IMG/VR virus record: IMGVR_UViG_3300045988_051499
Reading direction: 5' to 3' (one strand)
Source: a virus
DNA: 64,000 bases
Both the position numbers and the translations under genes were made by a program. Positions within the stretch are counted from its first letter, which is position 1. Every line of letters starts with the position of its first letter. The notes beneath the pieces are model-generated. The model saw only the letters and a program-made list of their open reading frames with translations, did not search any database and had not been told where the DNA came from. Shown here in pieces: positions 3,380-35,375 of this stretch.

Positions 3380-4224
3380 TACATTAAATTTTTAAGTTGA
3401 TTAGAAAATCTACGTCTTAATTTAGCTAAAGCTCCCTCCTTCATCTGTCTTATTCTTTCTCCTCCAACACCGTACATATCAGCTATAATTTTAGGATTGA
3501 CCGGAGCCATTCCTATACCAAATAGCATACAGATTAAATCATGCTCTCTAATTGTTAATTTAGAAAGTAGATTCTCTAGCTCTTTAGTTACATAGCTTTT
3601 ATTTACTTGTTCGTCAAGGGGATCTTCACCATCTGGAATAATATCACAGACTTGACTGTTTTCTTCATCTCCTCCTATGAAATCGTCCACAGAAACTAAC
3701 TTATTAGAAAACTGTGCTAGATAGTCAATTTGCTCCCTAGGAATATCAGTCATTTCTGATATTTCTTCGGAACTTGGATTTCTATCATGCGATTGCAAGA
3801 ATTTATTAGTTGCATCGAGTATACTTATTACCAATAATTGCTGAGACATTGGAAGACGAATTTCTCGTGCTTGCCAATATATAGAATTATAGATACTTTG
3901 TCTAATCCACCATACAGCATATGACAAGAATGTAACTCCTCTTTCTGGGTCAAACTTATCAATAGCTTTCATTAATCCTTCATTTCCACTAGAGATTAAA
4001 TCCATTAAAGGGATACCTCTATTCTGAAATTGCTTGGCGATAGTCACAACAAACCTAAGATTTGATTTTATGACTTGTTCTCTAGCAACATCATCTCCTT
4101 TTTGAGCCTCACAAATGAGACGAGTTACCTCAGTACTATCTAAGATCTTATATTTAGATATATCCCTGAGATAACTCGTCAACAGTGAGTCAGAACGGTC
4201 TGTGAAAATGATTTTTTTACTCAC
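3379..4224 (-). CDS. sigma-70 family RNA polymerase sigma factor
   Basis: region 2-like VTIAKQFQNRGIPLMDLISSGNEGLMKAIDKFDPERGVTFLSYAVWWIRQSI and region 4-like HTH ...ADMYGVGGERIRQMKEGALAKLRR. Confidence 0.65.
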   Translation of the reverse strand: MSKKIIFTDRSDSLLTSYLRDISKYKILDSTEVTRLICEAQKGDDVAREQVIKSNLRFVVTIAKQFQNRGIPLMDLISSGNEGLMKAIDKFDPERGVTFLSYAVWWIRQSIYNSIYWQAREIRLPMSQQLLVISILDATNKFLQSHDRNPSSEEISEMTDIPREQIDYLAQFSNKLVSVDDFIGGDEENSQVCDIIPDGEDPLDEQVNKSYVTKELENLLSKLTIREHDLICMLFGIGMAPVNPKIIADMYGVGGERIRQMKEGALAKLRRRFSNQLKNLM

Positions 4225-4459
4225 CTTCTTTTACAACCTGGGCTTCTGAAATTTCATCTTTAGGAGCATTAAGACCAATACGAATAGATAGTACTGATAT
4301 ATATGCTTCCATTGCTTTTAGTTGGGCGACTAGTAAGTCTTTATTAAGGCTGTCAACCTCCTTGAACTTATCCCCTAGGATAAAATCTCTGAGCTTAACA
4401 GCACGTTCATTAACTTCGTTAAATTCTCCCAACATTCTTTGAAATACAGCTTGTTCCAT
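4217..4459 (-). CDS. hypothetical protein
   Basis: 80-aa ORF in array. Confidence 0.3.
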   Translation of the reverse strand: MEQAVFQRMLGEFNEVNERAVKLRDFILGDKFKEVDSLNKDLLVAQLKAMEAYISVLSIRIGLNAPKDEISEAQVVKEGE

Positions 4460-4470
4460 TTGATTAATTT

Positions 4471-4683
4471 TTAATATTTACAAATGAATCTAGACCCGTA
4501 GGTTTCAAGGAAGTCCTTTTCTTCCTGTATTATCTCATAAATTCCAACTGTTACTAATGACAATACTAATCCTCCAAATATATAGACCAGAATAGTATTA
4601 AATATCCAAATATAAAGGTTCATAATTAATATCGTAAGAGTCATCGAGAATAGATACATTGGCGGTCTTTGTCTCACCTGCAT
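4471..4683 (-). CDS. possible small membrane protein
   Basis: 70 aa with two hydrophobic helices but overlaps the next gene by 86 nt, so doubtful. Confidence 0.2.
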   Translation of the reverse strand: MQVRQRPPMYLFSMTLTILIMNLYIWIFNTILVYIFGGLVLSLVTVGIYEIIQEEKDFLETYGSRFICKY

Positions 4684-5293
4684 CTAGTAGCCAATGATTT
4701 CCTTCGTGGATATGTCCACAAAAAGCATACTTTGGTTTCTTATCTATAATAGCCTTAGCCAAGACCTCATTTCCTGCATTTATAGGAGTAGAACTCCACC
4801 TACCAGGCGGAATCATACCACAATCATTTAATGCGGGAGCATCATGACTAATCAATATATCGCAATTTCCTGGGATATGTGAATAGATTTCTTCTAGTTT
4901 CTCATCAGAATACATGAAAGCCCAATTACCAAATTCATGGCAGGCCGGAGTTCCATAAATTCTATATACCTTTCCTTCATCACTTAGATAGTCTAGATGA
5001 GAATTATCAAGAAATTCAGCTTTTCCTTCTGTAGGAAATTTAATCACAGAGTTATTCCAGAGAAAATCCCTATTTTCAAAAACAAAATCATGGTTTCCAG
5101 CTGTAAATATTACTTTCTTACACGGCAATGATTTAATCCAATCTGCAAATACAGTCTTCAACCACTTCTCACACTGTGGCTTGTTTCTCTGCATATAAAG
5201 AGGAACAATATCTCCACATATTAAAACAAGTTCACATGGCTCTATATAATCAATTAGAAATCCATGTAAATCACTTATTGCACATATTTTCAT
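4598..5293 (-). CDS. calcineurin-like metallophosphoesterase
   Basis: MKICAISDLHG ... GDIV ... GNHDF ... GHIHEG phosphoesterase motifs. Confidence 0.6.
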   Translation of the reverse strand: MKICAISDLHGFLIDYIEPCELVLICGDIVPLYMQRNKPQCEKWLKTVFADWIKSLPCKKVIFTAGNHDFVFENRDFLWNNSVIKFPTEGKAEFLDNSHLDYLSDEGKVYRIYGTPACHEFGNWAFMYSDEKLEEIYSHIPGNCDILISHDAPALNDCGMIPPGRWSSTPINAGNEVLAKAIIDKKPKYAFCGHIHEGNHWLLDAGETKTANVSILDDSYDINYEPLYLDI

Positions 5294-5586
5294 ATCTTAT
5301 GAGCTAATCCGTAAACATTTTTAGTCCATCCATTCATATGCCCTTTGTTATTTCCAATAAGGCATCCTTTGTTTGAGTCTATCGCGTATACTTTATGAGT
5401 AACGCAAGCTCCTCTAACTTTACAAAATACTACATCTCCAACATTACATTCTTGCCACCTTATAGGAGTGACAAGATGCTTTTCATTGCTCTTATACAGA
5501 GGGAGCATTGAATTTCCTGGCTCGCTTGTTATAAACGATTCACCAGCCTCCAATCTCTGTATCTTTCTCAGTGTGTTTGGATTCAT
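5290..5586 (-). CDS. S24/S26-like peptidase domain protein
   Basis: GNSMLP motif resembling the GDSMxP catalytic Ser motif of LexA/signal-peptidase fold; 98 aa. Confidence 0.35.
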   Translation of the reverse strand: MNPNTLRKIQRLEAGESFITSEPGNSMLPLYKSNEKHLVTPIRWQECNVGDVVFCKVRGACVTHKVYAIDSNKGCLIGNNKGHMNGWTKNVYGLAHKI

Positions 5587-6139
5587 CAGAATATTTATTT
5601 AGTCCTTCTCTAGTCATATTAGGTACTATACTAATATAAACCTTTTCACCATCACGGTCATACGACCATATATGATTGTCTACTACATAGCTTAGAGATT
5701 TATCATATCTAGTATAGTCTAGAATAGCTTCCCAAGTAGCCATGCTGCCAGTAATACTATCCTTTTTATGTTTAGTAGCCCAGTTAAATATCCATAATAA
5801 ATGCCAAGTTCTGAAAAATGTTATACAAATCATCGGGTCCCATTCGTGTCTGGGACTGTCCCATTTATCCTTCCATCCTAATGCATGAAATCCTATATCT
5901 ATCACTGGACTATAGTAGTCTCTTCTTATGGGAAGTCCAAATGTCCAAAAGTTCTTTCTAAATAGAAAGTGGGCCTTGGGACGTTTAAAGTATTTTCTGG
6001 CTTTCCACCAGTGATACCATGGATTACGATACTCGTTCCAGCCAGGAGAAAGGAAAGGAATCTTACTATGAAAAAAGTACGACAGCTTGTAACGCAAACT
6101 GCCATACTTTTTACTAGTTAAATATTCTTTAACATTCAT
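5540..6139 (-). CDS. hypothetical protein (Trp-rich)
   Basis: 199-aa ORF; no motif recognised. Confidence 0.35.
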   Translation of the reverse strand: MNVKEYLTSKKYGSLRYKLSYFFHSKIPFLSPGWNEYRNPWYHWWKARKYFKRPKAHFLFRKNFWTFGLPIRRDYYSPVIDIGFHALGWKDKWDSPRHEWDPMICITFFRTWHLLWIFNWATKHKKDSITGSMATWEAILDYTRYDKSLSYVVDNHIWSYDRDGEKVYISIVPNMTREGLNKYSDESKHTEKDTEIGGW

Positions 6140-6392
6140 ATCCTCGTTTTGCTAGCTCTTTCTCCATTTCGTCTAAAATATCATCAATGATACAGTCAGT
6201 TAGACAATCAGAGTCAGGAAAGCCTAAGTTCCGCAGATGATAATCTATGTTATCTCCTACTTCATTAAGTATCATCCAACCTTCGATTTTCTCCTCTCCA
6301 TCTCTTATAAGTGTGCATATCACTTGGTCGATTAACTTAGGGATATTCACATCGTAGTTCTTAACTACCTCTACATTATAACTTATTATCAT
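6129..6392 (-). CDS. hypothetical protein
   Basis: 87-aa acidic ORF. Confidence 0.3.
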   Translation of the reverse strand: MIISYNVEVVKNYDVNIPKLIDQVICTLIRDGEEKIEGWMILNEVGDNIDYHLRNLGFPDSDCLTDCIIDDILDEMEKELAKRGYEC

Positions 6393-9432: not shown

Positions 9433-10632
9433 TTACTCATAGTCACGAATACACTTTAGAACAGGCTGTAATGGTGTTCCTTCATCAGATAGATAGAAAT
9501 ACTTAACAGTAGCCATCTTTCCAATAAGCTCTTTAAGTCTTTCTCTATACTGCTGCTTAAGCTCTCTAGAACCCATCGGCTTAGCCTTAAATTCTATACC
9601 ATCTTCAGTTATTAACGTAAAACACATATCCTCTTCTCGAAGACCTTCTGATAAGCCAGTAATTTCAAACTCTGCATCTTTATAGAATTTAAATTTAAGC
9701 ATATCATTAGTACGTTTTCCGAAGCCATACTCCTTATCAGGATTTCTACACACTACACCTTCCCAACCTTCTGAAACATATTGGTTGTGCAGTTTCATAA
9801 TATTCTCGTACCCAGAGACCTTTTCCTGCGGGACTATTTGCAATTGTAACTCACCCTCTTCCCAATCTTTATCTGGATTAAATCCAAGATTAAGTTCTTT
9901 CTGAAGCTGCTTAAGAATTTCAAGCCTATCAGAGAACTTCATACTAGGAATCATTATATCGTAAACATAATATTCAAGCCAGTCACAGTCAACTGCGTTT
10001 TTCTCAAGACGAGCTGCTCCACTGATTTGTTGGAGACTTTTGCCATGTCTATACAACTCTCCATCAAGAATGTAAGTGGGATGATTCCTGAAGAACTCAA
10101 GCAATCTCTCATTGTTTCGGATATGGCTTGTTGAATAGTCATAATTTCCCCCACCTCTGGAAGCAGATAGAATCTCACCGTCCTTATAGTAGAAGGAACA
10201 CCTAACTCCATCAATTTTTCTGCTAGCATACCAATACTTAACCTTATTGATTGAGGATTCCTTAACTTTATCTGCAGATTTTGCAAGCATGTGCTTTGCA
10301 AATCCATTCTGGTCGGTTTTAATGTCTCCATAAAATTCTTCCAATTGAGTTTCGCTATAAGTTTCGGGATCGTTCTCTAGCTCCTTGTAACCCTTATCTA
10401 AATATTTCTTAAGCTCAGACTTAAACTGCAACTCAAGTTGTTCTCTATGCGTTCTACCAGCTTTTCCTTTAGTAATGACTATTTCTGGTTGCTCTGTCAT
10501 CTTTCCATGTAGCTGTCCTGTAACTCTATTAATTACAAATCCAGCTTTTTCTTCATCCCACTGTTCTGTAGTAGATAAATATACAACTCTAAATTTGCCA
10601 GTTGAGGCTTTGCTTAACAAATATTTAATCAT
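9433..10632 (-). CDS. ATP-dependent DNA ligase
   Basis: motif I KIDGVR, motif III LDGELY, motif IV EGVVCRNP, motif V LKFKF. Confidence 0.7.
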   Translation of the reverse strand: MIKYLLSKASTGKFRVVYLSTTEQWDEEKAGFVINRVTGQLHGKMTEQPEIVITKGKAGRTHREQLELQFKSELKKYLDKGYKELENDPETYSETQLEEFYGDIKTDQNGFAKHMLAKSADKVKESSINKVKYWYASRKIDGVRCSFYYKDGEILSASRGGGNYDYSTSHIRNNERLLEFFRNHPTYILDGELYRHGKSLQQISGAARLEKNAVDCDWLEYYVYDIMIPSMKFSDRLEILKQLQKELNLGFNPDKDWEEGELQLQIVPQEKVSGYENIMKLHNQYVSEGWEGVVCRNPDKEYGFGKRTNDMLKFKFYKDAEFEITGLSEGLREEDMCFTLITEDGIEFKAKPMGSRELKQQYRERLKELIGKMATVKYFYLSDEGTPLQPVLKCIRDYE

Positions 10633-10846
10633 GAATAGTTACCTTATAATCATCATAGTCTAATACATCATCTAGTCCACTGTAGTCATATTCATTCTCG
10701 ATTAAGGTTTTCAAAAGCTCTTCATCGCTAACGAACTCTTCCTCTATATATTTCTTTAGCCATTCTTCCTGTAAATCTTCTCCTAATACAATATTTTTGT
10801 GTACTGTAATAGTGACTACTTTCTTTTTAAGTTCTTCTAGTGTCAT
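10625..10846 (-). CDS. hypothetical protein
   Basis: 73-aa acidic ORF. Confidence 0.3.
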   Translation of the reverse strand: MTLEELKKKVVTITVHKNIVLGEDLQEEWLKKYIEEEFVSDEELLKTLIENEYDYSGLDDVLDYDDYKVTIHD

Positions 10847-11211
10847 TTCTGATAGTCCTTAACTAAGTTCCACAAATCATCTATAGTATCAGTAGGAATT
10901 ATATTTCCGTCTTCATCATAAGCTTCATTAGGAAGACTATTTTTGAATAGTCCAGGCTTCTCAAATAACCACCAATTAACCCAGTCCACTCCTTCATCAG
11001 AGAACAATTCCGGAAGTACCGTATTTAAGAATCCCCAACCTAGTTCGGATATAGGAAGTTCAAACAAATCAATTCCAAAATCAGACCATCTATCCAATTC
11101 CTTAGAATAGTTCTGAGCATTTTCAATAAGCTTTACAAATCCTTCTTTAGTCATAGTAGTAATTATTTTAATATTCTTTTTGTAATATCTGTCTTCCAAC
11201 CGCAATCGCAC
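10843..11211 (-). CDS. hypothetical protein
   Basis: 122-aa ORF. Confidence 0.3.
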   Translation of the reverse strand: MRLRLEDRYYKKNIKIITTMTKEGFVKLIENAQNYSKELDRWSDFGIDLFELPISELGWGFLNTVLPELFSDEGVDWVNWWLFEKPGLFKNSLPNEAYDEDGNIIPTDTIDDLWNLVKDYQK

Positions 11212-11483
11212 TCCTCGGCTGCTATCTTAAATGATTCCTCTAGGTCTCCACTTTCCATATACTCTGCAATTAATATATCAGTGTCTACATCGTATTTATC
11301 AACAATTCTTTCAGTGACTATTTTAACTGCAACACCTTCGAGTTCGTCATAGATAACATCTTCCAACTTACTCATTAATTCATCCCATTCATCACTTAGT
11401 TTAGCTGTGGTAGACTTGCTGTCTTCTTCTCTCATAGCTTCTTCGAGTTCTAATATTTTAGACCTCAATTCCTCTTTAGTCAT
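11163..11483 (-). CDS. hypothetical protein
   Basis: 106-aa acidic ORF. Confidence 0.3.
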   Translation of the reverse strand: MTKEELRSKILELEEAMREEDSKSTTAKLSDEWDELMSKLEDVIYDELEGVAVKIVTERIVDKYDVDTDILIAEYMESGDLEESFKIAAEECDCGWKTDITKRILK

Positions 11484-11725
11484 GGTACTTTTAATACATT
11501 TTTAACAACAATTTCCTTTTTCATCTTACCAAATTGCTTCTCGATTTCTTCTGGAATATTTACTCGTATATCCATTAGGGAAGTTAGATACTTGACTTTG
11601 TCTCTTATATCATCAATAAAGTGATAATTAGTTTTGATTTGATTACTAATGTCCTCAACTCTCCGCATGAGACAAAGTATTAGGGCTAAGTTACATAACC
11701 CCAATACCATTAATACCCATATCAT
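11480..11725 (-). CDS. hypothetical small membrane protein
   Basis: 81 aa, N-terminal TM helix. Confidence 0.3.
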
Positions 11726-12303
11726 ACTCCAGTATGTCCAAATCCTCCTTCTCCTCGTTCAGTAGAAGGTAATTCTTCAACAACTTCCCATTCTATAGTT
11801 TCATGCTTAGCAATAACTATTTGGGCAATTCTTTCTCCATCAGTAATTCTAACTGGGACATTAGAAGTGTTCACTAATACAACTCCAATCTCTCCTCTGT
11901 AGTCGGCGTCAATGGTTCCAGGTGAATTAAGGACAGTAAGTCCCAATTTTAGTGCAAGACCGCTTCGTGGTCGAACTTGCGCCTCGTAACCCTTAGGTAA
12001 GGCTATAAACAATCCAGTCGGAATCAAACATCTACCTCCGGGCTTTATTTCAATAGTAGAAGCAACGGGAATACTGGGAACTCTTCTATTAGTAGGATTT
12101 CCTTCCTTGTCTACCACAAATGGACCATTTGGATCTTCAATTTTACTAATAGCTACAACATCAGCATCGAAAAAGAATTTTTCAGGCTTATTGTCTACTA
12201 ACTTAATTCTACTAAAGTCTCCTCTAATATCCATACCTGCTGATAAGGGAGTTTCATACTGAGGAAGTTGATGTCTTGATTTATTAATTATGAGTACTTT
12301 CAT
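11722..12303 (-). CDS. dut: dUTP diphosphatase
   Basis: trimeric dUTPase motifs [29 protein letters not shown]. Confidence 0.8.
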
Positions 12304-12838
12304 GTAATAAAATAAATTCAGTTAAATAAAATCTTGCATCTATAACACACTTAGGAACTAGTCCTTCTAGGCTTAAATTAGATCTTAGGGCATCTCTTAC
12401 AACAGTAGCCGATATACCTTCTTCTACCTGTTCTCTTGCCATGAGAGTCATTGATATATAACCCTTCAGCATAAACTTTGGAAACCATGTTGTAATAATT
12501 TCGTATCCATCGCTATAGTAGATATTAAAATGGGACTCTTTTATAATACTAACTATGTTAGCATATAAATAGAATCCCCAATCCTGAGAGTTATCAGACT
12601 CATCAGTCAAATCATTAAGAGGCTGAATGATACATCTACTAAGTAAACCTTCGTCCTCTAAGGCAGTTTCTAGTAATTTTATCCTAACCTTTATAGGAAT
12701 AGGATTACGCTTGTTTACTTTATCAGCACTACCAACTAACAAAAGAACCTTATCGTTCTCTGAACAAGCTTTTTTAATTAAAGCTAGGTGCCCATTGTGA
12801 ATGGGCTGAAACCTAGCTAAAATAACTCCATATTTCAT
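12284..12838 (-). CDS. nicotinamide/nicotinate mononucleotide adenylyltransferase (NadM-type)
   Basis: [14 protein letters not shown], the (H/T)xGH nucleotidyltransferase motif in NadM-like GRFQPxHxGH context. Confidence 0.6.
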
Positions 12839-13140
12839 TTCTGATCTTTTGGTTTTATCTCTGTTGTTTTAATTATTTCCCTAAAGTCGAGCAATTTCCA
12901 GTTCTGCCTCTTATACTTCTTATGGTCTTGTGAAAAATCTTTTAAATCAGATTTGTTACAGAACAAAGCAAAGGCATAATCAACAATAATCTCAGAAATC
13001 TTTTCATAATTCTGTTCCTTGTTTGTAGTCAGGTTGAGAATTACATCATCAATCTCTAAGTCTGGACAATTATACTTAGCTGGAATATAATTTTTGTCGT
13101 TGTAATATACACAAACGATGTTAGTAAATTTTCTTATCAT
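12835..13140 (-). CDS. hypothetical protein
   Basis: 101-aa ORF. Confidence 0.3.
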   Translation of the reverse strand: MIRKFTNIVCVYYNDKNYIPAKYNCPDLEIDDVILNLTTNKEQNYEKISEIIVDYAFALFCNKSDLKDFSQDHKKYKRQNWKLLDFREIIKTTEIKPKDQK

Positions 13141-13478
13141 ACACTTAATTCGTAGAGTCTTATTGGAGTAAATTCAAATATAAACCACTCTCCATCTGCA
13201 TCCTGGAACATACTAGAGTCCCAATCTATCATGGTAATTCTCTGTATTATCTTAGTCGGCTCACTATCAATAATTAGAGGAAGCCCAACCTTAAACGCTC
13301 CAGTTATCCCTTCGTACACTTTACCAGCACCTGACCTATGACTAACTTTAATCATTCCGTGCTTGGAGTGCAAGAGATTTTCTTCTTCTTCAGTAAAGTC
13401 CTTGAAGATATTCTCTTCAAGTCCTTTTATCAGAAGTTTCTTCCTTTCAATAATATCTTTAACCTTCAATTCTACCAT
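13137..13478 (-). CDS. hypothetical protein
   Basis: 113-aa ORF. Confidence 0.3.
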   Translation of the reverse strand: MVELKVKDIIERKKLLIKGLEENIFKDFTEEEENLLHSKHGMIKVSHRSGAGKVYEGITGAFKVGLPLIIDSEPTKIIQRITMIDWDSSMFQDADGEWFIFEFTPIRLYELSV

Positions 13479-13764
13479 ACACTACAGGATTATTTAATGC
13501 TTTCATTATCTCTTCTATGGTACAAGTATTAGCTTCACTGTAGAATGCCATTACTGGAGCTGCATCATTATCAATTAATACAGCAAATGGAGTATGTCTA
13601 GCGCTAAAACCTCCCTTAAGCTTGAAGGCGTTTTTACGTTCCTTAAACAAGCCTTCATGGTAAGTTTGTAATTCTACTAAAGGATATTTAGAAAGAACCT
13701 TTTTTAATTCGTCAACCAGATGTTGACTGTTATCATCATATGCAACCTTAAGAATCATTTCCAA
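13459..13764 (-). CDS. hypothetical protein
   Basis: 101-aa ORF just upstream of nrdG. Confidence 0.3.
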   Translation of the reverse strand: MEMILKVAYDDNSQHLVDELKKVLSKYPLVELQTYHEGLFKERKNAFKLKGGFSARHTPFAVLIDNDAAPVMAFYSEANTCTIEEIMKALNNPVVYGRIEG

Positions 13765-14258
13765 AAACGTGATGTTATGTCTTTAACTATGGGTTTTCCA
13801 CAGCTATTATCTATATGAAGCATAACTTGATTAGTTGTCTTACTATTTAAAGGCCCGTTTTCTTCAATATATGGACCTAGCTTGATATAATCGAAATGCT
13901 TCATATTCACGTGCTCTGATAGTTCTTGTCTACCTGAGTACCATGCCACTTTTAAATTCGGATAATAATCTTTAACAAAACTAGCTAACACATTTACTAA
14001 GTGAGGGTCAGAATCCCCTCCCATAAATGCTATACACGAAATACCATCTGTAATTAGTTCGTCTAGATGAATAATGTAATCATCAGAGAACCCCTGCGGA
14101 TATTCAATTAATGGTTTACCTATATCTTCGGCTAGGTATTGACTATGACATCCTTTACAATGACAAGGACAGTTAGATATATTTATAGCTAATGTAATCT
14201 CATCCGGAATTTCCTGAAAGACTACTCTGGCATCAACATATTTAAGCATACTCCTCAA
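13755..14258 (-). CDS. nrdG: anaerobic ribonucleotide reductase activating protein
   Basis: radical-SAM Cys cluster NCPCHCKGC plus GGDSDP; sits 2 genes from nrdD. Confidence 0.6.
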   Translation of the reverse strand: MRSMLKYVDARVVFQEIPDEITLAINISNCPCHCKGCHSQYLAEDIGKPLIEYPQGFSDDYIIHLDELITDGISCIAFMGGDSDPHLVNVLASFVKDYYPNLKVAWYSGRQELSEHVNMKHFDYIKLGPYIEENGPLNSKTTNQVMLHIDNSCGKPIVKDITSRFWK

Positions 14259-14907
14259 TCTTTTTAGTTTCTGTATCTAATATAAAAGGTCTTCTTACGT
14301 CTAAGCAAGCAAACTTGTCAGTAATAATGGGTTCTGATTCCAATTGAGTATGTCCAAATATTTGATAATATGTAGACTCTCTATCTCCTTCTCTGACATC
14401 GCTCCATACCATACTGCCTGTATTAGACCACCCTCCTCTCATACGAGATACTTCCCATAGGAAGCCAACTAGAAAGTCCTCAGGCTTAGTAATTAGGTCA
14501 GTAATAGTAAAATCCATACTCTTTAACCAATCATTAGTAACTCCAGCATGAGTATATAGAATACCTTCCGAGAAGTATTTGAGTTGGAATAGAGACTTGA
14601 AATTCTCAAACATTTCCTTAATTAGCTCTGCATTAGCGTAATCATACCTAGAAGCACTTCCGAAATCATAGCAATAAGCACAGTCGTGATTTCCAAGGAG
14701 TAGTATTACCTTATCGGGATTATCAACTTTGAATTGGATAATCTCTTTAAACTCCTCTATCGCATTCTCTCTAGTAATACCTTCATAACCATATGGGTCG
14801 AGGTAGTCCCCTAAAAAGACTACCTTATCCACACTATTAATCTTCTCTTTTGCTTTTCTCCAGAATGGTCTACCGTGAACATCTGGAATAATTAAAACTT
14901 TACTCAT
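14242..14907 (-). CDS. Ser/Thr protein phosphatase (PPP family, lambda phosphatase-like)
   Basis: DVHG, GDYLDPYG, GNHD metallophosphatase signature. Confidence 0.65.
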   Translation of the reverse strand: MSKVLIIPDVHGRPFWRKAKEKINSVDKVVFLGDYLDPYGYEGITRENAIEEFKEIIQFKVDNPDKVILLLGNHDCAYCYDFGSASRYDYANAELIKEMFENFKSLFQLKYFSEGILYTHAGVTNDWLKSMDFTITDLITKPEDFLVGFLWEVSRMRGGWSNTGSMVWSDVREGDRESTYYQIFGHTQLESEPIITDKFACLDVRRPFILDTETKKIEEYA

Positions 14908-14909
14908 TT

Positions 14910-17054
14910 TTAATTTACTTCTTTAGAATATGTTCTTTTCTCAGCTTCTATTCTTCTATCTTTACCAAAAGCAGTGATAGGTCTTAGATAGCCAATAATT
15001 CTGGTATATTGAGTAATATGTTCACTCCCACATTTAGGACATACCTTAATGGGAGCTTTCACAATATGTTTACAATCCTCGCACTTACTATTAGGAATAT
15101 TGAACGTGAAGTAATTAGTTCCTTGCTGAATAGCAAAGTCTATAAGCTTCAAGTATTGCTCCTTAGATAGATGTTCCTCCAAGTTAATGTGGGCTGCACT
15201 ACCTCCATCTGTATACTGATAAGTCTGCCTTCCATGAAGTATAAACTTATCTAATACAGATGTGTCATCATGGGCATTATAGAAATAACTATTGTATAGA
15301 TTCCTATCTTCAGGAACTTTATACCCGTCCTCCTTATCCCATCTATAATTTTTACCACCAAGTCCCTCTGCTGGAACAACTTCAGAATTAAATAGGAAAG
15401 GTCTTTTCTTATCGTAGATGGAATGAATCTTATTCTGCTCCTTAATAGTTCCGAGGATTAGTTGCAAGAACTCGAAATACTCTGGATTATTAGATACTTT
15501 CAGTCCTAGGAACTCAGCAGCTTCATTCAAACCATTTAAACCAATAGTACTGTATAGGTCTTTAATATTGATATATCCACCATTAGAAGAAGCAAACATC
15601 TTCTTTTCTTCCCATTCATAGAGCATAGTCTTATAAGTAATGTGATACTTGTAGACTCTATCAAGTATACCTATTAACCACCCTTTAAATTGGTTAGCTA
15701 CATCCTTAGACCATATTTTATGATTATAACATTTATAATAATCTTGTATAATTCTATTGATATTGAGAGTTATCACATTACAGCTACCAGTTTTGACCCC
15801 AGTCATACCAGAGGTAGGACTAAATGTATTCTCCGCCAATTCATTACGAAGTCTACAACACGAAGCTAGACTATCCGCACTATCAGAAATATAAGTAAAG
15901 AAACTATGACCTTGTGCATACATTTCTGCACACAAATCTTTGTATTCCTTATCTATAATATCTTTTCCATCATGCACCATAGCGAAAGTTTCAACTGGAA
16001 AGGTTAGTACCTGTTTCAGACGCAGCTTGTTGAACCAAGACATAAATAGTCTTTGCAACGTATCAATCGCACTCCACTCCGGTTTCGTTCCATCTGGATA
16101 GTAAAATTCTCCAAATAGAGATTCAAAATAGGTCTTATCATAGTACGAAACATTAGTGAAGGGAGATTGATAACTTCTGTTTCCAGCAGGTTGATTAATT
16201 CCCCAAACAAACTGTTTAAAAGCTTTAAGGATAGAGTCTTCGATAGTTCTCTTAATAAGAGAATGTTCCGAAGTACATATACAGTCGAGCTTCTCGTACC
16301 ACTTTTCTCCGTATTCAGCAATAATATAATAGTTAAGTGCAATAAAATAGCTACCTACAGCAACTGCTCCTTTACATTGAGAGGACAATAGAAATACTAA
16401 GTTAGTAACTTGTCCACTGAATGACTGCAAATCATTAGGAGGGCCAGGAGTAACTCCATCAATATTACCTACTCCCTCTAACATTAGGGGGTATAACGAG
16501 ACTGCCATACAATACTGTTTAAGTACTGACGTAGAAGCCTCATCGTGGGTATAAATAATATGACTGTCTAGGTCTTTAGAATATTGAGAAGAGAGTTCGG
16601 GATAAAGAAGCTTTAATTTCTTCTTCATACGATAGCGCTGAATTTCTCTGTTCTCGCGCTTTCTATCTTCACTCTCTAATGTAGCAACGTTCTTAGATAC
16701 AACATTAGCATTTCCATCTGTTTCAGATGAAGTAGCTGCATTTTCGGAACTATTAATATAGTTATCTTGGTAACTAATCTTAGCTATGATTTCTCTAAGT
16801 CTAGATTGTTCACTTCTATACTGAGAATATGCTGAGGCTACATCGTCGTAACCATAGTCCCTCAAGGTTTCTATTACTACGTCTTGAATCTCTTCTATAG
16901 TAATGCCGTCCCATAAATGCATATCAGCCACCATAGCTGTAATGACTTCTTTATTTTCTTCAGGACAGCAAGCATTAAATGCTTTAGATATTGCTTCTAC
17001 TATCTTATTACCGTCAAATTCCTGTAAACTTCCGTCTCTCTTTACTACTTGCAT
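14910..17054 (-). CDS. nrdD: anaerobic ribonucleoside-triphosphate reductase
   Basis: 714 aa; N-terminal ATP-cone; C-terminal Zn ribbon CEDCKH...CPKCGS and glycyl-radical motif RIIGYLRPITAF. Confidence 0.85.
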   Translation of the reverse strand: MQVVKRDGSLQEFDGNKIVEAISKAFNACCPEENKEVITAMVADMHLWDGITIEEIQDVVIETLRDYGYDDVASAYSQYRSEQSRLREIIAKISYQDNYINSSENAATSSETDGNANVVSKNVATLESEDRKRENREIQRYRMKKKLKLLYPELSSQYSKDLDSHIIYTHDEASTSVLKQYCMAVSLYPLMLEGVGNIDGVTPGPPNDLQSFSGQVTNLVFLLSSQCKGAVAVGSYFIALNYYIIAEYGEKWYEKLDCICTSEHSLIKRTIEDSILKAFKQFVWGINQPAGNRSYQSPFTNVSYYDKTYFESLFGEFYYPDGTKPEWSAIDTLQRLFMSWFNKLRLKQVLTFPVETFAMVHDGKDIIDKEYKDLCAEMYAQGHSFFTYISDSADSLASCCRLRNELAENTFSPTSGMTGVKTGSCNVITLNINRIIQDYYKCYNHKIWSKDVANQFKGWLIGILDRVYKYHITYKTMLYEWEEKKMFASSNGGYINIKDLYSTIGLNGLNEAAEFLGLKVSNNPEYFEFLQLILGTIKEQNKIHSIYDKKRPFLFNSEVVPAEGLGGKNYRWDKEDGYKVPEDRNLYNSYFYNAHDDTSVLDKFILHGRQTYQYTDGGSAAHINLEEHLSKEQYLKLIDFAIQQGTNYFTFNIPNSKCEDCKHIVKAPIKVCPKCGSEHITQYTRIIGYLRPITAFGKDRRIEAEKRTYSKEVN

Positions 17055-32084: not shown

Positions 32085-32894
32085 TTATTTACAAACGTCT
32101 ATTACAGTTAAGTTCTCGTTGCTGGGACGATAATTAATATCCCTATGAGAATTAGATACAATAACCTGGTCAAAATTATTACACATATTAATCAGACCTT
32201 TATCATTAACTGCGTGACATACGATTATGATAAACTTGCTATTTGGATATCTCTCTTTGAGAACCTTAAGCTCTCCTAGGAAAGTTCCTCCGGCATCACA
32301 CAAGTCATCAATGAACACAAATGTAGAATAGTAGCAATTCTTAGACTCCTCTATTTCAAAGGACTCAATTCTTCCAGTCTCTAGATTTCTTTCCTTTTTG
32401 AAGACTAAATAACCATAGTGAGAATAGTTACTTCCATATCTGTCCTTCGCCCCATGGTCTGGGAACACGATATTACTTTGGGCTGGAATCCAAGAGTGGT
32501 GTCCAAATTCCCAAGGTAAACATCTGTCACCAAGAAGATGAAAAGTTCTACTAGAATGTGCCTCAAGAACATATATGTTTCTATAGCCTAAGCTATTTAA
32601 CATATTACATACTACTTTCAAGGAGAATGGACGATTAAAACTCATTACTCTATCCATACGCATAGACATTAAATAAGTAATGTGTAAATCCCATTCTACT
32701 TCTTGTCTATCTAAAATATCTCCTACTTGCACTAAGAGGAATAAATCCTCAGTATTAGATATTCTACAAATGACATCAATAGATTCCTTTCTGTTTAATT
32801 CCTCAGTAAGGAAAAACTGAGGCTCTCCATCAGGAAATCTAGTAACATCGTACTTAATTTCACTGATTTCCTTGTTGATTAAGTTTAATTTCAT
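32085..32894 (-). CDS. ribose-phosphate pyrophosphokinase (Prs)-family protein
   Basis: VFPDHGAKDR (cf. Prs VSPDAGGAKR) and PRPP/phosphoribosyl-binding loop FIDDLCDAGGTF (cf. LVDDMADTCGT). Confidence 0.6.
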   Translation of the reverse strand: MKLNLINKEISEIKYDVTRFPDGEPQFFLTEELNRKESIDVICRISNTEDLFLLVQVGDILDRQEVEWDLHITYLMSMRMDRVMSFNRPFSLKVVCNMLNSLGYRNIYVLEAHSSRTFHLLGDRCLPWEFGHHSWIPAQSNIVFPDHGAKDRYGSNYSHYGYLVFKKERNLETGRIESFEIEESKNCYYSTFVFIDDLCDAGGTFLGELKVLKERYPNSKFIIIVCHAVNDKGLINMCNNFDQVIVSNSHRDINYRPSNENLTVIDVCK

Positions 32895-33324
32895 CTACTA
32901 CATATTTTAAGATTTCATAACTTTCTTCCAGACCTGCCCTATCATCTAGGAGGATATTGTAATAAGGTTTCTTAGATTTAGAGAATATAGAACTACTAAT
33001 GTTTGGAGCAGATAAAGTATTAGAAGTAATATTTGCTATTCCTAATCGCATACAAATTGTCTGCTTTGCCATAATTTTATAATCATCTTCATCAGTGGTG
33101 AATAAAATCATTTCAAAACCTAGAAGTGAGCATTCTTTAAGTAGTTCTATAACGCAACTATAATCTCCGCCAGTATTATGGTAATCGAAAATAGTATTAT
33201 CAAAATCGAAAGCGACTATTAGCTTTCCGTATTTATGATACTCTTCTAATAGTCGTTTCTTGCAAGCTTCTTTCCCAAAAGGATGATTAAAGTCCATGGT
33301 CAATTCTTTGTCTGATTTCTTCAA
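32860..33324 (-). CDS. HAD-family phosphatase
   Basis: HAD motif I VAFDFDNTIFDY. Confidence 0.45.
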   Translation of the reverse strand: MKKSDKELTMDFNHPFGKEACKKRLLEEYHKYGKLIVAFDFDNTIFDYHNTGGDYSCVIELLKECSLLGFEMILFTTDEDDYKIMAKQTICMRLGIANITSNTLSAPNISSSIFSKSKKPYYNILLDDRAGLEESYEILKYVVDEIKLNQQGNQ

Positions 33325-34837
33325 GAGAATATTCTTTCTTCAAGATACCATCTTCAAAGACAGTCTCTAAGCATCCCTCTTTTTCCTCCTCGATTGAGAC
33401 CTGGTCGGTAGCAGTATACTTCCCATCCAGACATTTATAGACAGCAATCAAACCTTTCAAAGAGTTCTTAGTACCATCATCAGTTTTAGGATGTTTGAAG
33501 ATTTCTTTCAATTCGCCATTTACTACGCAAGCAGTAGCCTTAATAGCAAACCCAAGACTATCTCTACTTGCATACTGATAGGAATATGAACCTACTCCCA
33601 GAACGAGATTACAAGCCGCCATATGAGCGTTTTCTAATCTCAAGTAGATTTGCTTTTGACGTTCTAGAGTAATAGAATCTCCATAAAGCAGACCAACCTT
33701 AGTGCTAGGATAACGGTAATCCTTTGAAGTAGTATTCCATCCGAAGATTTTACCAAGCATATAATATGCCCCATAATATTGACCTTCGGACACTTCAACA
33801 TACTCTGCATCGTCGTTAAACGGAGCATAGCAGCAATAATACTTACCTTCTTTCATTCTGGTATTGAAGTGAGGATTAGTTCTCAACCCGCAGATTATAT
33901 CTACTGGGTCTCCACTATCAGGACGGATTACTACTCTACCATCACGAGCCATAATGTCTTTCTTCAGCTTGGGCAAGAAATTTTCAATTACATTCCAGAA
34001 ATCCCAAGTATCAGATACAATAGAAACAAACCCAGAAGGATACAAATCATTAATTAGACGTTTGAAAGTGCCCAGCTCATCTTCCTCCCCTCCAGCACAC
34101 ATTACAGAGTGTTCTGTTGCTGGAACTGTAGCAGCAATCAATTCCTCGTCTGAATTAGCTCCATAATATTCTTCCAAAGCAGCAATAGCTGGAATAGTTT
34201 CACTTCCCACAAAAGAAGTCATATGCGCCATACCAGATATAATTGCGGCTTCCATTCCCGCCATACCTCGCATTGAGAAATCATGACAACAAAAACCAAG
34301 ATTTACATCTGTTGGAAAACCAGTCTTGCAAGCATGACGATGTAGCTCTTTCTTATAAAGCCTAGCTCTAGTAGCAGATGTGCATGGCATCCACAAGGTA
34401 CAGCTGATAATAGTCTCTAAGTAGTTAGTTAACCAAAAGAACTCGGGTAGAGTATTTGTAATGGTCATCATGGGAACCCGAATAGGGCACACAGAACCTT
34501 CAGGAAGAGCCTTTATGCGAATTGGTAGATACCCAAGGTCATATAAAGCTTCAATATGTCTGTACCCAACGGATTCAATACCAACAAAGTTGTTTACTCT
34601 ACGATAGAACATCTCCACAGCTTCCTTCTTTGGTAGATTAAAGAAGTTTTTCTCAAACTGTTTAATGAGATATTCTTTGATTAGGTATTGAATACCAAAT
34701 ACTACTGAACCTTCGGTTGCTTCTGGGAAGTATTTATTACTTCTAGGAGTCCAGTTACTATAAACTTGTTCAGTACCTTCGGGGTACATTCTGTGATGGC
34801 CCAACTTGTAACCATCTGTAGCATTAATTATTTCCAT
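33287..34837 (-). CDS. nicotinamide phosphoribosyltransferase (NAMPT/NadV-like)
   Basis: 516 aa; NATDGYKLGHH N-terminus, IRPDSGDP, VSDTWDFWN and EHSVMC regions co-linear with NAMPT. Confidence 0.8.
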   Translation of the reverse strand: MEIINATDGYKLGHHRMYPEGTEQVYSNWTPRSNKYFPEATEGSVVFGIQYLIKEYLIKQFEKNFFNLPKKEAVEMFYRRVNNFVGIESVGYRHIEALYDLGYLPIRIKALPEGSVCPIRVPMMTITNTLPEFFWLTNYLETIISCTLWMPCTSATRARLYKKELHRHACKTGFPTDVNLGFCCHDFSMRGMAGMEAAIISGMAHMTSFVGSETIPAIAALEEYYGANSDEELIAATVPATEHSVMCAGGEEDELGTFKRLINDLYPSGFVSIVSDTWDFWNVIENFLPKLKKDIMARDGRVVIRPDSGDPVDIICGLRTNPHFNTRMKEGKYYCCYAPFNDDAEYVEVSEGQYYGAYYMLGKIFGWNTTSKDYRYPSTKVGLLYGDSITLERQKQIYLRLENAHMAACNLVLGVGSYSYQYASRDSLGFAIKATACVVNGELKEIFKHPKTDDGTKNSLKGLIAVYKCLDGKYTATDQVSIEEEKEGCLETVFEDGILKKEYSLEEIRQRIDHGL

Positions 34838-34850
34838 TCTAAAAATTATT

Positions 34851-35375
34851 TTAATAACTAATTGTTAATAAACTTTTCATGCCTTTACCACTAGCTAAAT
34901 TCTTAAAACACTGAGTGATAAATTCCTTCGTTTCTGGATGGATAGCCCTAGGAGAATTTATATACTTAATCCACCAGTTATATTCTCCTTGAAAACTATT
35001 ACCGTTGTATACTTTACCAGCAGCCAGATAATCGCATACCAATTCTAGAGCATACTCTTTAGGCATCTTCACTGGAACACCGCCAATGTCTAGCTTAGTT
35101 ACCCAGTATTCATAATGGTGTGGATTTCTTCCTCTGTGATGTAAATAAGACCTAGAATATCCTAGAATTTCTTTTTCCTTGTTTAAGGGAGATGTGTCAT
35201 CATCGTAAAATTTTACAGAACGAGAGAACTCATACCATCCGAATTTAGATAAGTCGTGCAAGATGCCCTGTTTGTATAAACCTAACTGAAAACAGTAATA
35301 AGCTACCCAAAACTTATGTCTAAGTATTCGCCTAAGATGTTTCAGTGTTATACACATACATTTAAGAATTTCCAT
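34851..35375 (-). CDS. hypothetical protein (His-rich, possible metal-dependent hydrolase)
   Basis: 174 aa; HDLSKF...HHRGRNPHHYEYW. Confidence 0.3.
   Translation of the reverse strand: MEILKCMCITLKHLRRILRHKFWVAYYCFQLGLYKQGILHDLSKFGWYEFSRSVKFYDDDTSPLNKEKEILGYSRSYLHHRGRNPHHYEYWVTKLDIGGVPVKMPKEYALELVCDYLAAGKVYNGNSFQGEYNWWIKYINSPRAIHPETKEFITQCFKNLASGKGMKSLLTISY

Follow-up and report, generated by a model that had tools for sequence, protein, structure and literature searches.

Depletion of nicotinamide adenine dinucleotide (NAD+) is among the commonest anti-phage strategies of bacteria, and NARP1 is the main answer known on the phage side. In NARP1, described from SPbetaL1, Bas63, Fado and ICP1, a PRPS-like gene for an ADP-ribose pyrophosphokinase (Adps) stands beside a NAMPT-like gene for a nicotinamide ADP-ribose transferase (Namat), both phage-encoded (Osterman et al. 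2024; PMC12774641; PMC13586617). Its weak point is the need for unmodified ADP-ribose (ADPR): the defence aRES cleaves NAD+ to nicotinamide and ADPR-1''-phosphate, which Adps is unable to use, and 15% of NARP1 operons encode Adpp, a phosphatase with a Macro domain, which converts ADPR-1''-phosphate to ADPR, the pathway then being called NARP1-AP (bioRxiv 10.64898/2026.01.28.702374). Adpp is the only published fix for that weak point; in Vibrio phage Gary, where NARP1-AP was validated, the gene order is Adps-Adpp-Namat (bioRxiv 10.64898/2026.01.28.702374). Another accessory gene is inserted in the NARP1 locus of mycobacteriophage DyoEdafos and encodes RyDEP, a RyR-domain glycosidase, which acts on defence-derived 2'/3'cADPR and yields linear ADPR for Adps (bioRxiv 10.64898/2026.05.28.727677). 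Here we analyse a locus of this kind in a stretch of viral DNA of 64,000 nucleotides (nt), IMG/VR record IMGVR_UViG_3300045988_051499 (the whole stretch is called the window below), in which a predicted phosphatase of the HAD superfamily lies between the two NARP1 genes:

33287..34837, minus strand: predicted Namat (nicotinamide ADP-ribose transferase, NAMPT-like), 516 amino acids (aa), first gene of the operon
32860..33297, minus strand: predicted capless (C0) HAD-superfamily phosphatase, 145 aa, middle gene; an alternative TTG start at 33324 would give 154 aa
32085..32894, minus strand: Adps-like protein (ADP-ribose pyrophosphokinase, PRPS-like), 269 aa, third gene, containing FIDDLCDAGGTF

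As in NARP1, the locus has the adenine clamp of Namat, and the truncation and key residues typical of Adps; it differs in having Namat first and a third gene between Namat and Adps, and in belonging to a lineage of human-gut phages of 185-192 kb, the size of the contigs which are its close relatives in IMG/VR. The three-gene operon with a small phosphatase-type gene is shared with NARP1-AP of Gary, and some loci containing the HAD gene even have the same Adps-X-Namat layout. Since the defining Macro-domain phosphatase is absent, however, we set the window operon apart as a variant of NARP1-AP and not as a member; its accessory protein has the HAD fold (with an aspartyl-phosphate mechanism) and no detectable homology to the Macro Adpp. 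An accessory gene in a NARP1 locus is also what links it to RyDEP-NARP1, RyDEP being a glycosidase whereas the HAD protein is a predicted phosphomonoesterase.

A sequence-only reading of the window had listed the three open reading frames (ORFs) and a fourth at 12284..12838; all of them, the middle one as 32860..33324, are present on the minus strand together with the peptide motifs quoted for them, among these FIDDLCDAGGTF in the Prs-like ORF and NATDGYKLGHH and IRPDSGDP in the NAMPT-like ORF. The boundaries of the HAD gene most likely are 32860..33297 rather than 32860..33324, since the alignment with homologues, which have 143-145 aa, starts at the ATG at 33297. Reading the junctions in this way, the HAD ATG overlaps the 3' end of Namat by 11 nt and the Adps ATG sits 35 nt within the 3' end of the HAD gene, overlapping frames at both junctions being the arrangement expected of one translationally coupled operon. 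These overlaps are used here as the operon evidence, since promoter and terminator scans were uninformative: their counts did not exceed what shuffling predicts, and a sigma-70 consensus is not applicable to Bacteroidota.

Family profiles from PHROGs and NCBIfam are unable to split Adps from Prs or Namat from Nampt (verified Namats and NARP2-type Nampts both hit PF04095, phrog_448 and NF006629), and motifs, reciprocal PDB scores and trees were therefore used. The NAMPT homologue of the window, which matches PF04095 and PF18127 in Pfam, has its best solved relative in the SPbetaL1 Namat (9W5X/9W5W; 488 bits, 49% identity), followed by human NAMPT (227 bits) and the Xanthomonas (Xcc) Nampt (198 bits); a KVP40-like NARP2 Nampt shows the opposite ranking, with 289 bits for the Xcc Nampt, about 220-230 for human NAMPT and 167 for the SPbetaL1 Namat. 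For the selectivity-clamp helix of Namat, the consensus GSX-phi-X-phi-X-phi-TRD with aromatics at positions 3 and 7 has been published (PMC12774641), and in the clamp loop Arg, Lys or Tyr stands at the third position, Lys followed by a stacking aromatic fourth residue being the pattern of Bas63-type Namats. Both elements can be located in the window:

33560..33598, minus strand: selectivity-clamp helix motif of Namat, GVGSYSYQYASRD (aa 414-426), fitting the published Namat consensus
34730..34744, minus strand: selectivity-clamp loop region of Namat, RSNKY (aa 32-36), aligning with SPbetaL1 R37-T-S-R40

The helix reads GSYSYQYASRD, which is the consensus with Ser instead of Thr at position 9. 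The motif fits all 99 Adps-linked homologues in the loci collected, whereas NARP2-type Nampts and one bacterial Nampt have GMGGxLLQ..RD at this position; the S-N-K-Y of the clamp loop fits the Lys-then-aromatic pattern, as a weak discriminator, the loop being variable. A neighbour-joining tree splits the Adps-linked proteins, including that of the window, from two NARP2-type Nampts with 100% bootstrap, and in the NAMPT-family tree the clade of the window lies between the SPbetaL1 and the ICP1/Gary-like lineages. The Nampt-like core residues D13, Y15, F189, R192, H245, R306, D308 and R399 are kept. By its motifs, scores and tree position the NAMPT homologue is thus predicted to be a Namat. Two structural peculiarities of these proteins should be recorded: at about aa 318-355, the window Namat has about 35 extra aa with abundant Tyr and Cys, LRTNPHFNTRMKEGKYYCCYAPFNDDAEYVEVSEGQYYGAY, inserted in a loop which is disordered in the SPbetaL1 crystal structure, and in three crAss-like contigs (L223-L225, P0100 context) Namat is found as two ORFs, a 151-aa NAMPT_N and a 379-aa NAPRTase part, owing to a split gene or else to a frameshift.

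The Prs homologue, in turn, resembles Adps. It matches phrog_619 (E 2e-51) and reaches 58 bits against TIGR01251 (cut-off 113 bits), where the verified Adps of ICP1, SPbetaL1 and BPS10C reach 98, 106 and 70 bits, and E. coli Prs 423. Absence of the C-terminal alpha11-alpha12 module is a defining signature of Adps (PMC13586617); the window protein ends with ...LTVIDVCK, without this module, about 23 residues before the end of E. coli Prs, and also lacks the N-terminal extension of Prs (alignment A3). Equivalents of the ICP1 residues F18, R87, H121, D161, K185, R187, D212, D213, C215, D216 and F221 are kept, Lys185 being essential in ICP1 Adps, and RMDR is read at the RQDR position of Prs. The acceptor and catalytic residues among them (F18, R87, H121, D161, K185, D212, D213) are conserved in Prs too and hence are necessary rather than discriminating; the adenine-lid Phe221 as well as Cys215 and Asp216 are common to the Adps of the window and that of ICP1. 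The relevant segments are:

32280..32312, minus strand: ribose-binding DD and PP loop of Adps, IDDLCDAGGTF (aa 195-205), aligning with D212-D213-I-C215-D216...F221 of ICP1 Adps
32388..32399, minus strand: catalytic beta-hairpin KKER of Adps, with the equivalents of ICP1 Lys185 and Arg187 (alignment A3)

Adps sequences are only about 24-31% identical among each other, and in their tree, whose deep nodes are weak, a clade of Bacteroidota phages including the window (93% support) is placed between the ICP1/Gary-like and the SPbetaL1 groups. The window Adps shares an operon with Namat, with overlapping frames, and in the original NARP1 survey 97% of the Adps-clade genes adjoin a Namat; together with the sequence tests of both proteins, this makes it very probable that the core of the locus is NARP1. 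That core is already known, and we infer the enzymatic activities of its Adps and Namat from these resemblances. The sequence-only reading had offered NARP1 as one of two options, and the sequence-level tests with a clear outcome all support it. Its further statement that Adps cannot be told from Prs by sequence no longer fully holds, as two structural papers of 2026 (PMC12774641, PMC13586617) provide signatures which the window proteins mostly show.

Because NARP1-AP has a phosphatase slot, the HAD gene is the most interesting part of the locus. A Rossmannoid HAD fold is confidently assigned to its product and the catalytic set is complete (D31, D33, T35, T67/68, K110, D118, D119), the motifs being located as follows:

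33193..33207, minus strand: HAD motif I DFDNT (Asp31 nucleophile, Asp33 acid/base), invariant in alignments A1 and A2
32938..32973, minus strand: HAD motif III Lys110 (KKPYYN) and motif IV Asp118-Asp119 (LLDDR), invariant in alignments A1 and A2

The middle gene is thus predicted to encode an intact capless HAD phosphatase. The protein has no Pfam assignment, including none to the Macro families PF14519, PF01661 and PF20016, and with 20.4 bits it falls far below the cut-off (165) of NF046079, the family of BT0820. BT0820 (PDB 2OBB), its nearest solved structural neighbour, is uncharacterised; we found no literature on it and, having no known substrate, it is uninformative on the function of the HAD protein. 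RefSeq phage records (NC_055884.1 gp045, NC_023501.1 BPS10C_011) and phrog_1238 label the family "phosphoheptose isomerase", which conflicts with fold and motifs and is, as judged from these, a propagated misannotation. The family comprises 858 representative clusters at 50% identity. As a weak hint at most, PF15891 was found as fusion partner in two of its longer members and GIY-YIG in one, with none in the rest; the two former (P0201, P0228), on phage-like contigs with the NARP1 genes not in view, have the HAD fused to a nucleoside 2-deoxyribosyltransferase-like domain. Three proteins of 210-225 aa (P0005, P0006, P0007) cover about 79% of the window HAD at 98-100% identity and additionally match an AAA ATPase (PF00004); they may be gene fusions, or artefacts of assembly or gene calling in related contigs.

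The strongest argument for a role of the HAD gene is its linkage to the NARP1 genes. Namat, HAD and Adps occur together in 72 of the 78 IMG/VR loci retrieved with the HAD alignment, two more having HAD and Adps only, and all three genes are found in 30 of 59 loci from bacterial genomes and metagenome-assembled genomes (MAGs), including chromosomal scaffolds of Flavobacteriia, Saprospiraceae, Paenibacillus and Cohnella. Distant members were sampled as seven representatives at even steps down the ranked list; two of their contigs were too short to judge, and in all five informative ones Adps and/or Namat directly adjoin HAD. Four gene orders were seen (with N for Namat, H for HAD and A for Adps): N-H-A, as in the Crassvirales phages cr126_1, cr111_1 and DAC15/17; A-N-H, as in the Bacillus Wphvirus phages BPS10C, Zuko and about 50 others; A-H-N, as in Aeromonas phage PhAER-3 and the loci L077, L080, L081 and P0262; and H-A-N. 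The carriers are phages of Bacteroidota, Bacillus, Aeromonas and Tenacibaculum as well as bacterial chromosomes, and the other neighbours of the window operon (a DUF5662 gene, an SPFH gene and downstream ORFs) show no conservation beyond its own lineage. In Lak megaphages HAD and Adps are adjacent with Namat about 225 kb off, which indicates that HAD is linked most tightly to Adps. Based on this recurrence, HAD probably is a conserved, hitherto undescribed functional part of the NARP1 pathway.

Several loci deserve mention for themselves. In Prevotella phage Lak-B2 (L089), the parts of the split operon lie at 420.7-422 kb and at 195.7-197.2 kb of the record. Chromosomal NARP1 modules with HAD are found in Cohnella (L187), Paenibacillus psychroresistens (L199) and Flavobacteriia (L169-L179), those of Paenibacillaceae having the order HAD-Adps-Namat; a chromosomal NARP1 module has been reported for Paenibacillus foliorum (PMC12774641). 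Two further NARP1 operons (L228, P0150 context; L232, P0240 context) contain NADAR genes (PF08719) directly beside HAD, one of them also a NUDIX gene; these could be additional ADP-ribose-processing accessories of NARP1, none of which, as far as we found, has so far been described for this pathway.

A different context of the same family is offered by four Mucilaginibacter chromosomal loci (L190-L192, L200), where HAD closes a cluster of NrtR, NadM-Nudix, Nampt and Prs. Such bacterial NrtR-regulated NadM-Nudix/NadV/Prs clusters likewise lead from ADPR and nicotinamide to NAD+, but with a canonical Nampt (GMGGALLQ) and a canonical Prs. As Rodionov and Huang reportedly described in 2008, NrtR governs an ADP-ribose-sensing regulon, in which ADPR is split to ribose-5-phosphate and then passes through phosphoribosyl pyrophosphate (PRPP) and nicotinamide mononucleotide (NMN) to NAD+. 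The NARP1 and the Mucilaginibacter contexts share ADPR as input, the latter being an independent link of HAD to ADPR.

Comparison with the Macro phosphatase was made by a hidden Markov model (HMM) built from six published Adpp sequences, which recovered its positive control, Chazly21 gp177, and gave no match in the window (64 kb) or in any of the 82 viral HAD loci. Strict mutual exclusivity of the two phosphatases was considered and rejected, since one locus, L218 (MAG contig DAORGW010000032.1, about 4121..6192), has a Macro-Adpp homologue (126 bits), Adps and HAD in one operon; it is the only one of about 150 loci with both types. All entries of the published Macro table are phages of Vibrio, Pseudomonas, Acinetobacter or Pseudoalteromonas; phages infecting Bacillus, Bacteroides or Prevotella are missing from it. 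The same preprint gives the highest frequencies of aRES for Bacillota (10.4% of genomes) and Bacteroidota (4.7%) (bioRxiv 10.64898/2026.01.28.702374). A survey keyed to Pfam and restricted to Macro accessions would have overlooked HAD.

As best explanation of the whole we propose, with a probability of roughly 0.5, a NARP1 operon with a HAD accessory that feeds Adps with dephosphorylated ADPR. HAD would act upstream of Adps and take the phosphate off a phosphorylated ADPR unusable by Adps, giving plain ADPR; Adps would convert ADP-ribose and ATP to ADPR pyrophosphate (ADPR-PP), and Namat would join ADPR-PP and nicotinamide to NAD+, enabling the phage to replicate in hosts with NAD+-cleaving defences (Thoeris, DSR, SIR2-type and others). 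The HAD protein would thus be a non-homologous counterpart of the Macro-domain Adpp in NARP1-AP, and the separate NMN adenylyltransferase (NMNAT) of the window may add a step from NMN to NAD+. The Adpp slot of NARP1-AP and the RyDEP insertion show that NARP1 operons recruit input adaptors, and an assignment of HAD to ADPR is suggested by the Adpp-like slot, the absence of Macro, the fit of the host phyla with aRES and the ADPR context in Mucilaginibacter. It is above all the HAD substrate that we infer here from analogy: that it is some phosphorylated ADPR is an evenly balanced proposition, and that it is specifically ADPR-1''-phosphate, the leading candidate, which could arise from NAD+ phosphorolysis of the aRES/RES type or from decay of ADPR-PP, is put forward tentatively.

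A number of observations weigh against this explanation. Sequence is a notoriously poor guide to the substrates of HAD phosphatases. The L218 operon carries HAD although it has a Macro Adpp, which argues against simple redundancy and for differing substrates of the two. HAD stands without NARP1 genes nearby in 23 of the 59 bacterial loci and in homologues from Ralstonia/Burkholderia jumbo phages, so the family is not exclusive to NARP1, and the locus samples behind the linkage counts are biased to close relatives and phylogenetically non-independent. In the core enzymes, the window Adps has G, G and T, as in canonical Prs, at the positions of A218, A219 and S220 of the ICP1 PP loop, and G at that of F223, with SPbetaL1 Adps also deviating in the PP loop/donor-ATP site; the Adps tree has a single Prs outgroup and deep nodes of 36-44%; and in comparison with SPbetaL1 Namat, which also lacks the loop insertion, the window has Glu (GSETIPA, 34187..34207, aa 211-217) for the nicotinamide-binding Asp215, a replacement common to its crAss-like relatives. 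Finally, adenosine monophosphate (AMP) inhibits Adps, that of ICP1 retaining about 35% of its activity at 500 uM (PMC13586617), which would give an AMP-removing enzyme a purpose in the operon.

This last point leads to the suggestion that HAD works on a by-product, as a 5'-nucleotidase for AMP, as a phosphatase or pyrophosphatase removing pyrophosphate (PPi) and thereby pulling Namat, or as an NMN phosphatase. Some HAD enzymes are indeed nucleotidases or pyrophosphatases; both the NARP1 route and the Prs/Nampt route of Mucilaginibacter involve AMP and PPi, weak BFVD matches connect HAD to phage 5'-nucleotidases, and the two members fused to a PF15891 domain point to nucleotide or ribose-phosphate chemistry. 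Yet hosts already abound in pyrophosphatase and AMP-consuming enzymes, destruction of AMP or NMN would be wasteful for the phage, the known pyrophosphatase-type HADs carry cap domains, and the positional analogy to Adpp would be left without explanation, all of which renders such a role quite improbable. Less improbable, though still unlikely, is that the substrate of HAD, within a NARP1 core, is a phosphorylated ADPR different from the product of aRES: 2'-phospho-ADPR from NADases acting on NADP+, ADPR-2''-phosphate or ADPR-1''-phosphate from the decay of ADPR-PP or ADPR-cP (as metabolite repair), or the product of an undiscovered defence. The linkage evidence serves this proposal as well as the favoured one, the phosphate positions not being discriminated by any evidence; labile ADPR-PP turns spontaneously into ADPR-cP and is converted to ADPR-P by apyrase; capless HADs have an open active site, suited to bulky nucleotide-sugar substrates; and the coexistence of both phosphatases in L218 suggests non-redundant substrates. 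What tips the choice towards ADPR-1''-phosphate is the near-exclusivity of HAD with Macro and the match of host phyla to aRES.

Two further explanations were weighed. Ordinary PRPP-dependent salvage of the NadV type (NARP2-like), with Prs making PRPP, the NAMPT homologue NMN and the distant NMNAT NAD+, HAD being incidental, had been the first match of the sequence-only reading. Like NARP2 of KVP40 (NadV/NatV), the phage does encode a NAMPT-family enzyme and an NMNAT in one genome, the latter co-occurring with the operon on 45 IMG/VR contigs; Namats keep about half of the PRPP activity of Nampt in vitro (PMC12774641); the GGT of the PP loop resembles canonical Prs; and the HMMs phrog_619, phrog_448 and NF006629 do not separate the two readings. 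The NAMPT homologue, however, has the adenine clamp and clusters with verified Namats, outside the clade of KVP40-like Nampts, the Prs homologue resembles verified Adps in staying below the canonical Prs threshold and in missing the regulatory C-terminal module, and the NMNAT is unlinked, 20 kb away in a nucleotide-metabolism block, and without the Nudix domain of NatV; in the published survey, moreover, Adps-linked and Nmnat-linked clades are distinct. On these grounds the NadV/NatV match is unsupported and very improbable. That HAD is a passenger, for example a nucleotide-pool phosphatase syntenic in some phage lineages, might be read from the roughly 40% of bacterial loci and the jumbo phages in which it lies away from NARP1 genes, and from its exchange as a cassette independently of its neighbours; it becomes far-fetched given that unrelated phage families and bacterial phyla show the linkage, with at least four different gene orders, and that it is kept in 5 of 5 informative distant members, survives the split of the Lak operon and comes with overlapping frames, while other neighbours of the operon are not conserved.

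The sequence-only reading had noted that the HAD enzyme has no described role in NAD+ reconstitution. For HAD enzymes this still is so, as no paper linking one to NARP1 was found in the searchable literature; a phosphatase slot as such, however, has since been described with the Macro Adpp of NARP1-AP. The HAD in the NARP1 operon is a new part, and the finding as a whole, while not categorically new, is a well-supported and testable extension of an active topic. Adpp has been catalogued only in phages of Gammaproteobacteria, though aRES peaks in Bacillota and Bacteroidota, and, if our explanation is true, this gap would be closed by HAD, carried in NARP1 operons by phages of Bacillus, Bacteroides and Prevotella (crAss-like, Lak), as a case of non-homologous replacement within a counter-defence pathway. 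The widespread "phosphoheptose isomerase" label (PHROG 1238) would be corrected, and abundant human-gut phages would be flagged as carriers of extended NAD+ reconstitution, which bears on host-range prediction and phage engineering. A bolder version, which we consider rather doubtful, makes HAD a third, mechanistically distinct class of NARP1 input adaptor, with a phosphorylated-ADPR substrate outside the reach of the Macro Adpp that possibly stems from an undescribed NAD+-cleaving defence of Bacteroidota or Bacillota; HAD would also serve bacterial ADPR recycling and so be a general, hitherto overlooked NAD+ repair enzyme, and the HAD operon together with NMNAT could rebuild NAD+ from three classes of breakdown products.

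The NMNAT itself had been listed as a NadM-type enzyme apart from the operon. It carries both nucleotidyltransferase motifs, HxGH and ISxTxxR, and its best PDB relatives are NMNATs (MJ0541, the M. thermautotrophicum NMNAT and Francisella NadM; E down to 1e-9), though it stays below the curated NCBIfam cut-offs (best NF002243, 57 bits versus 127); no Nudix domain is present in the protein. It is surrounded by a nucleotide-metabolism block at 9433..17054:

12284..12838, minus strand: NadM/archaeal-type NMN adenylyltransferase-like protein, 184 aa, cytidylyltransferase fold, PF01467; possible auxiliary NAD+ route
12788..12814, minus strand: NMNAT motif HxGH (RFQPIHNGH), nucleotidyltransferase motif
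12395..12415, minus strand: NMNAT motif ISxTxxR (ISATVVR), nucleotidyltransferase motif
9433..10632: ATP-dependent DNA ligase, nucleotide-metabolism block
11722..12303: dUTPase, overlapping the NMNAT by 20 nt
14242..14907: calcineurin-like phosphoesterase, nucleotide-metabolism block
14910..17054: anaerobic ribonucleotide reductase NrdD with ATP-cone, nucleotide-metabolism block

No phage combining NARP1 with NARP2 turned up in the original survey; the window phage has a Namat-clade enzyme and an NMNAT in one genome. The defence Metis cleaves NAD+ to NMN and AMP, beyond the repair by NARP1; since Metis yields NMN and Namat keeps PRPP-to-NMN activity, one may speculate that the NMNAT could give a second route of NAD+ reconstitution, for example by reversing Metis-type cleavage.

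Immediately beside the operon, a DUF5662 protein with His-rich motifs (34851..35375; PF18907, E 1e-28) ends 13 nt upstream of Namat and probably is co-transcribed with it. DUF5662, the SPFH protein and the downstream ORFs were considered as further members of the operon and rejected, being conserved only within the lineage of the window. The Adps gene is 100% identical to MT836666.1, an unannotated human faecal phage contig, whose positions 10055..11659 match the window HAD in two pieces only (62% coverage, 94% identity) and Namat over residues 1-433 only; a frameshift, an indel or a further cassette variant at the Namat/HAD junction could account for this. Gene-by-gene mosaicism is seen in comparing the window with L029, L018, L033 and L021: L029 has 99-100% nucleotide identity over Namat, Adps and the downstream region, with HAD at 78-84%, and in L018 Adps alone is replaced (29-65% identity between flanks of >90%). 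Co-circulating phages are swapping individual operon genes, which a locus under diversifying pressure would be expected to show.

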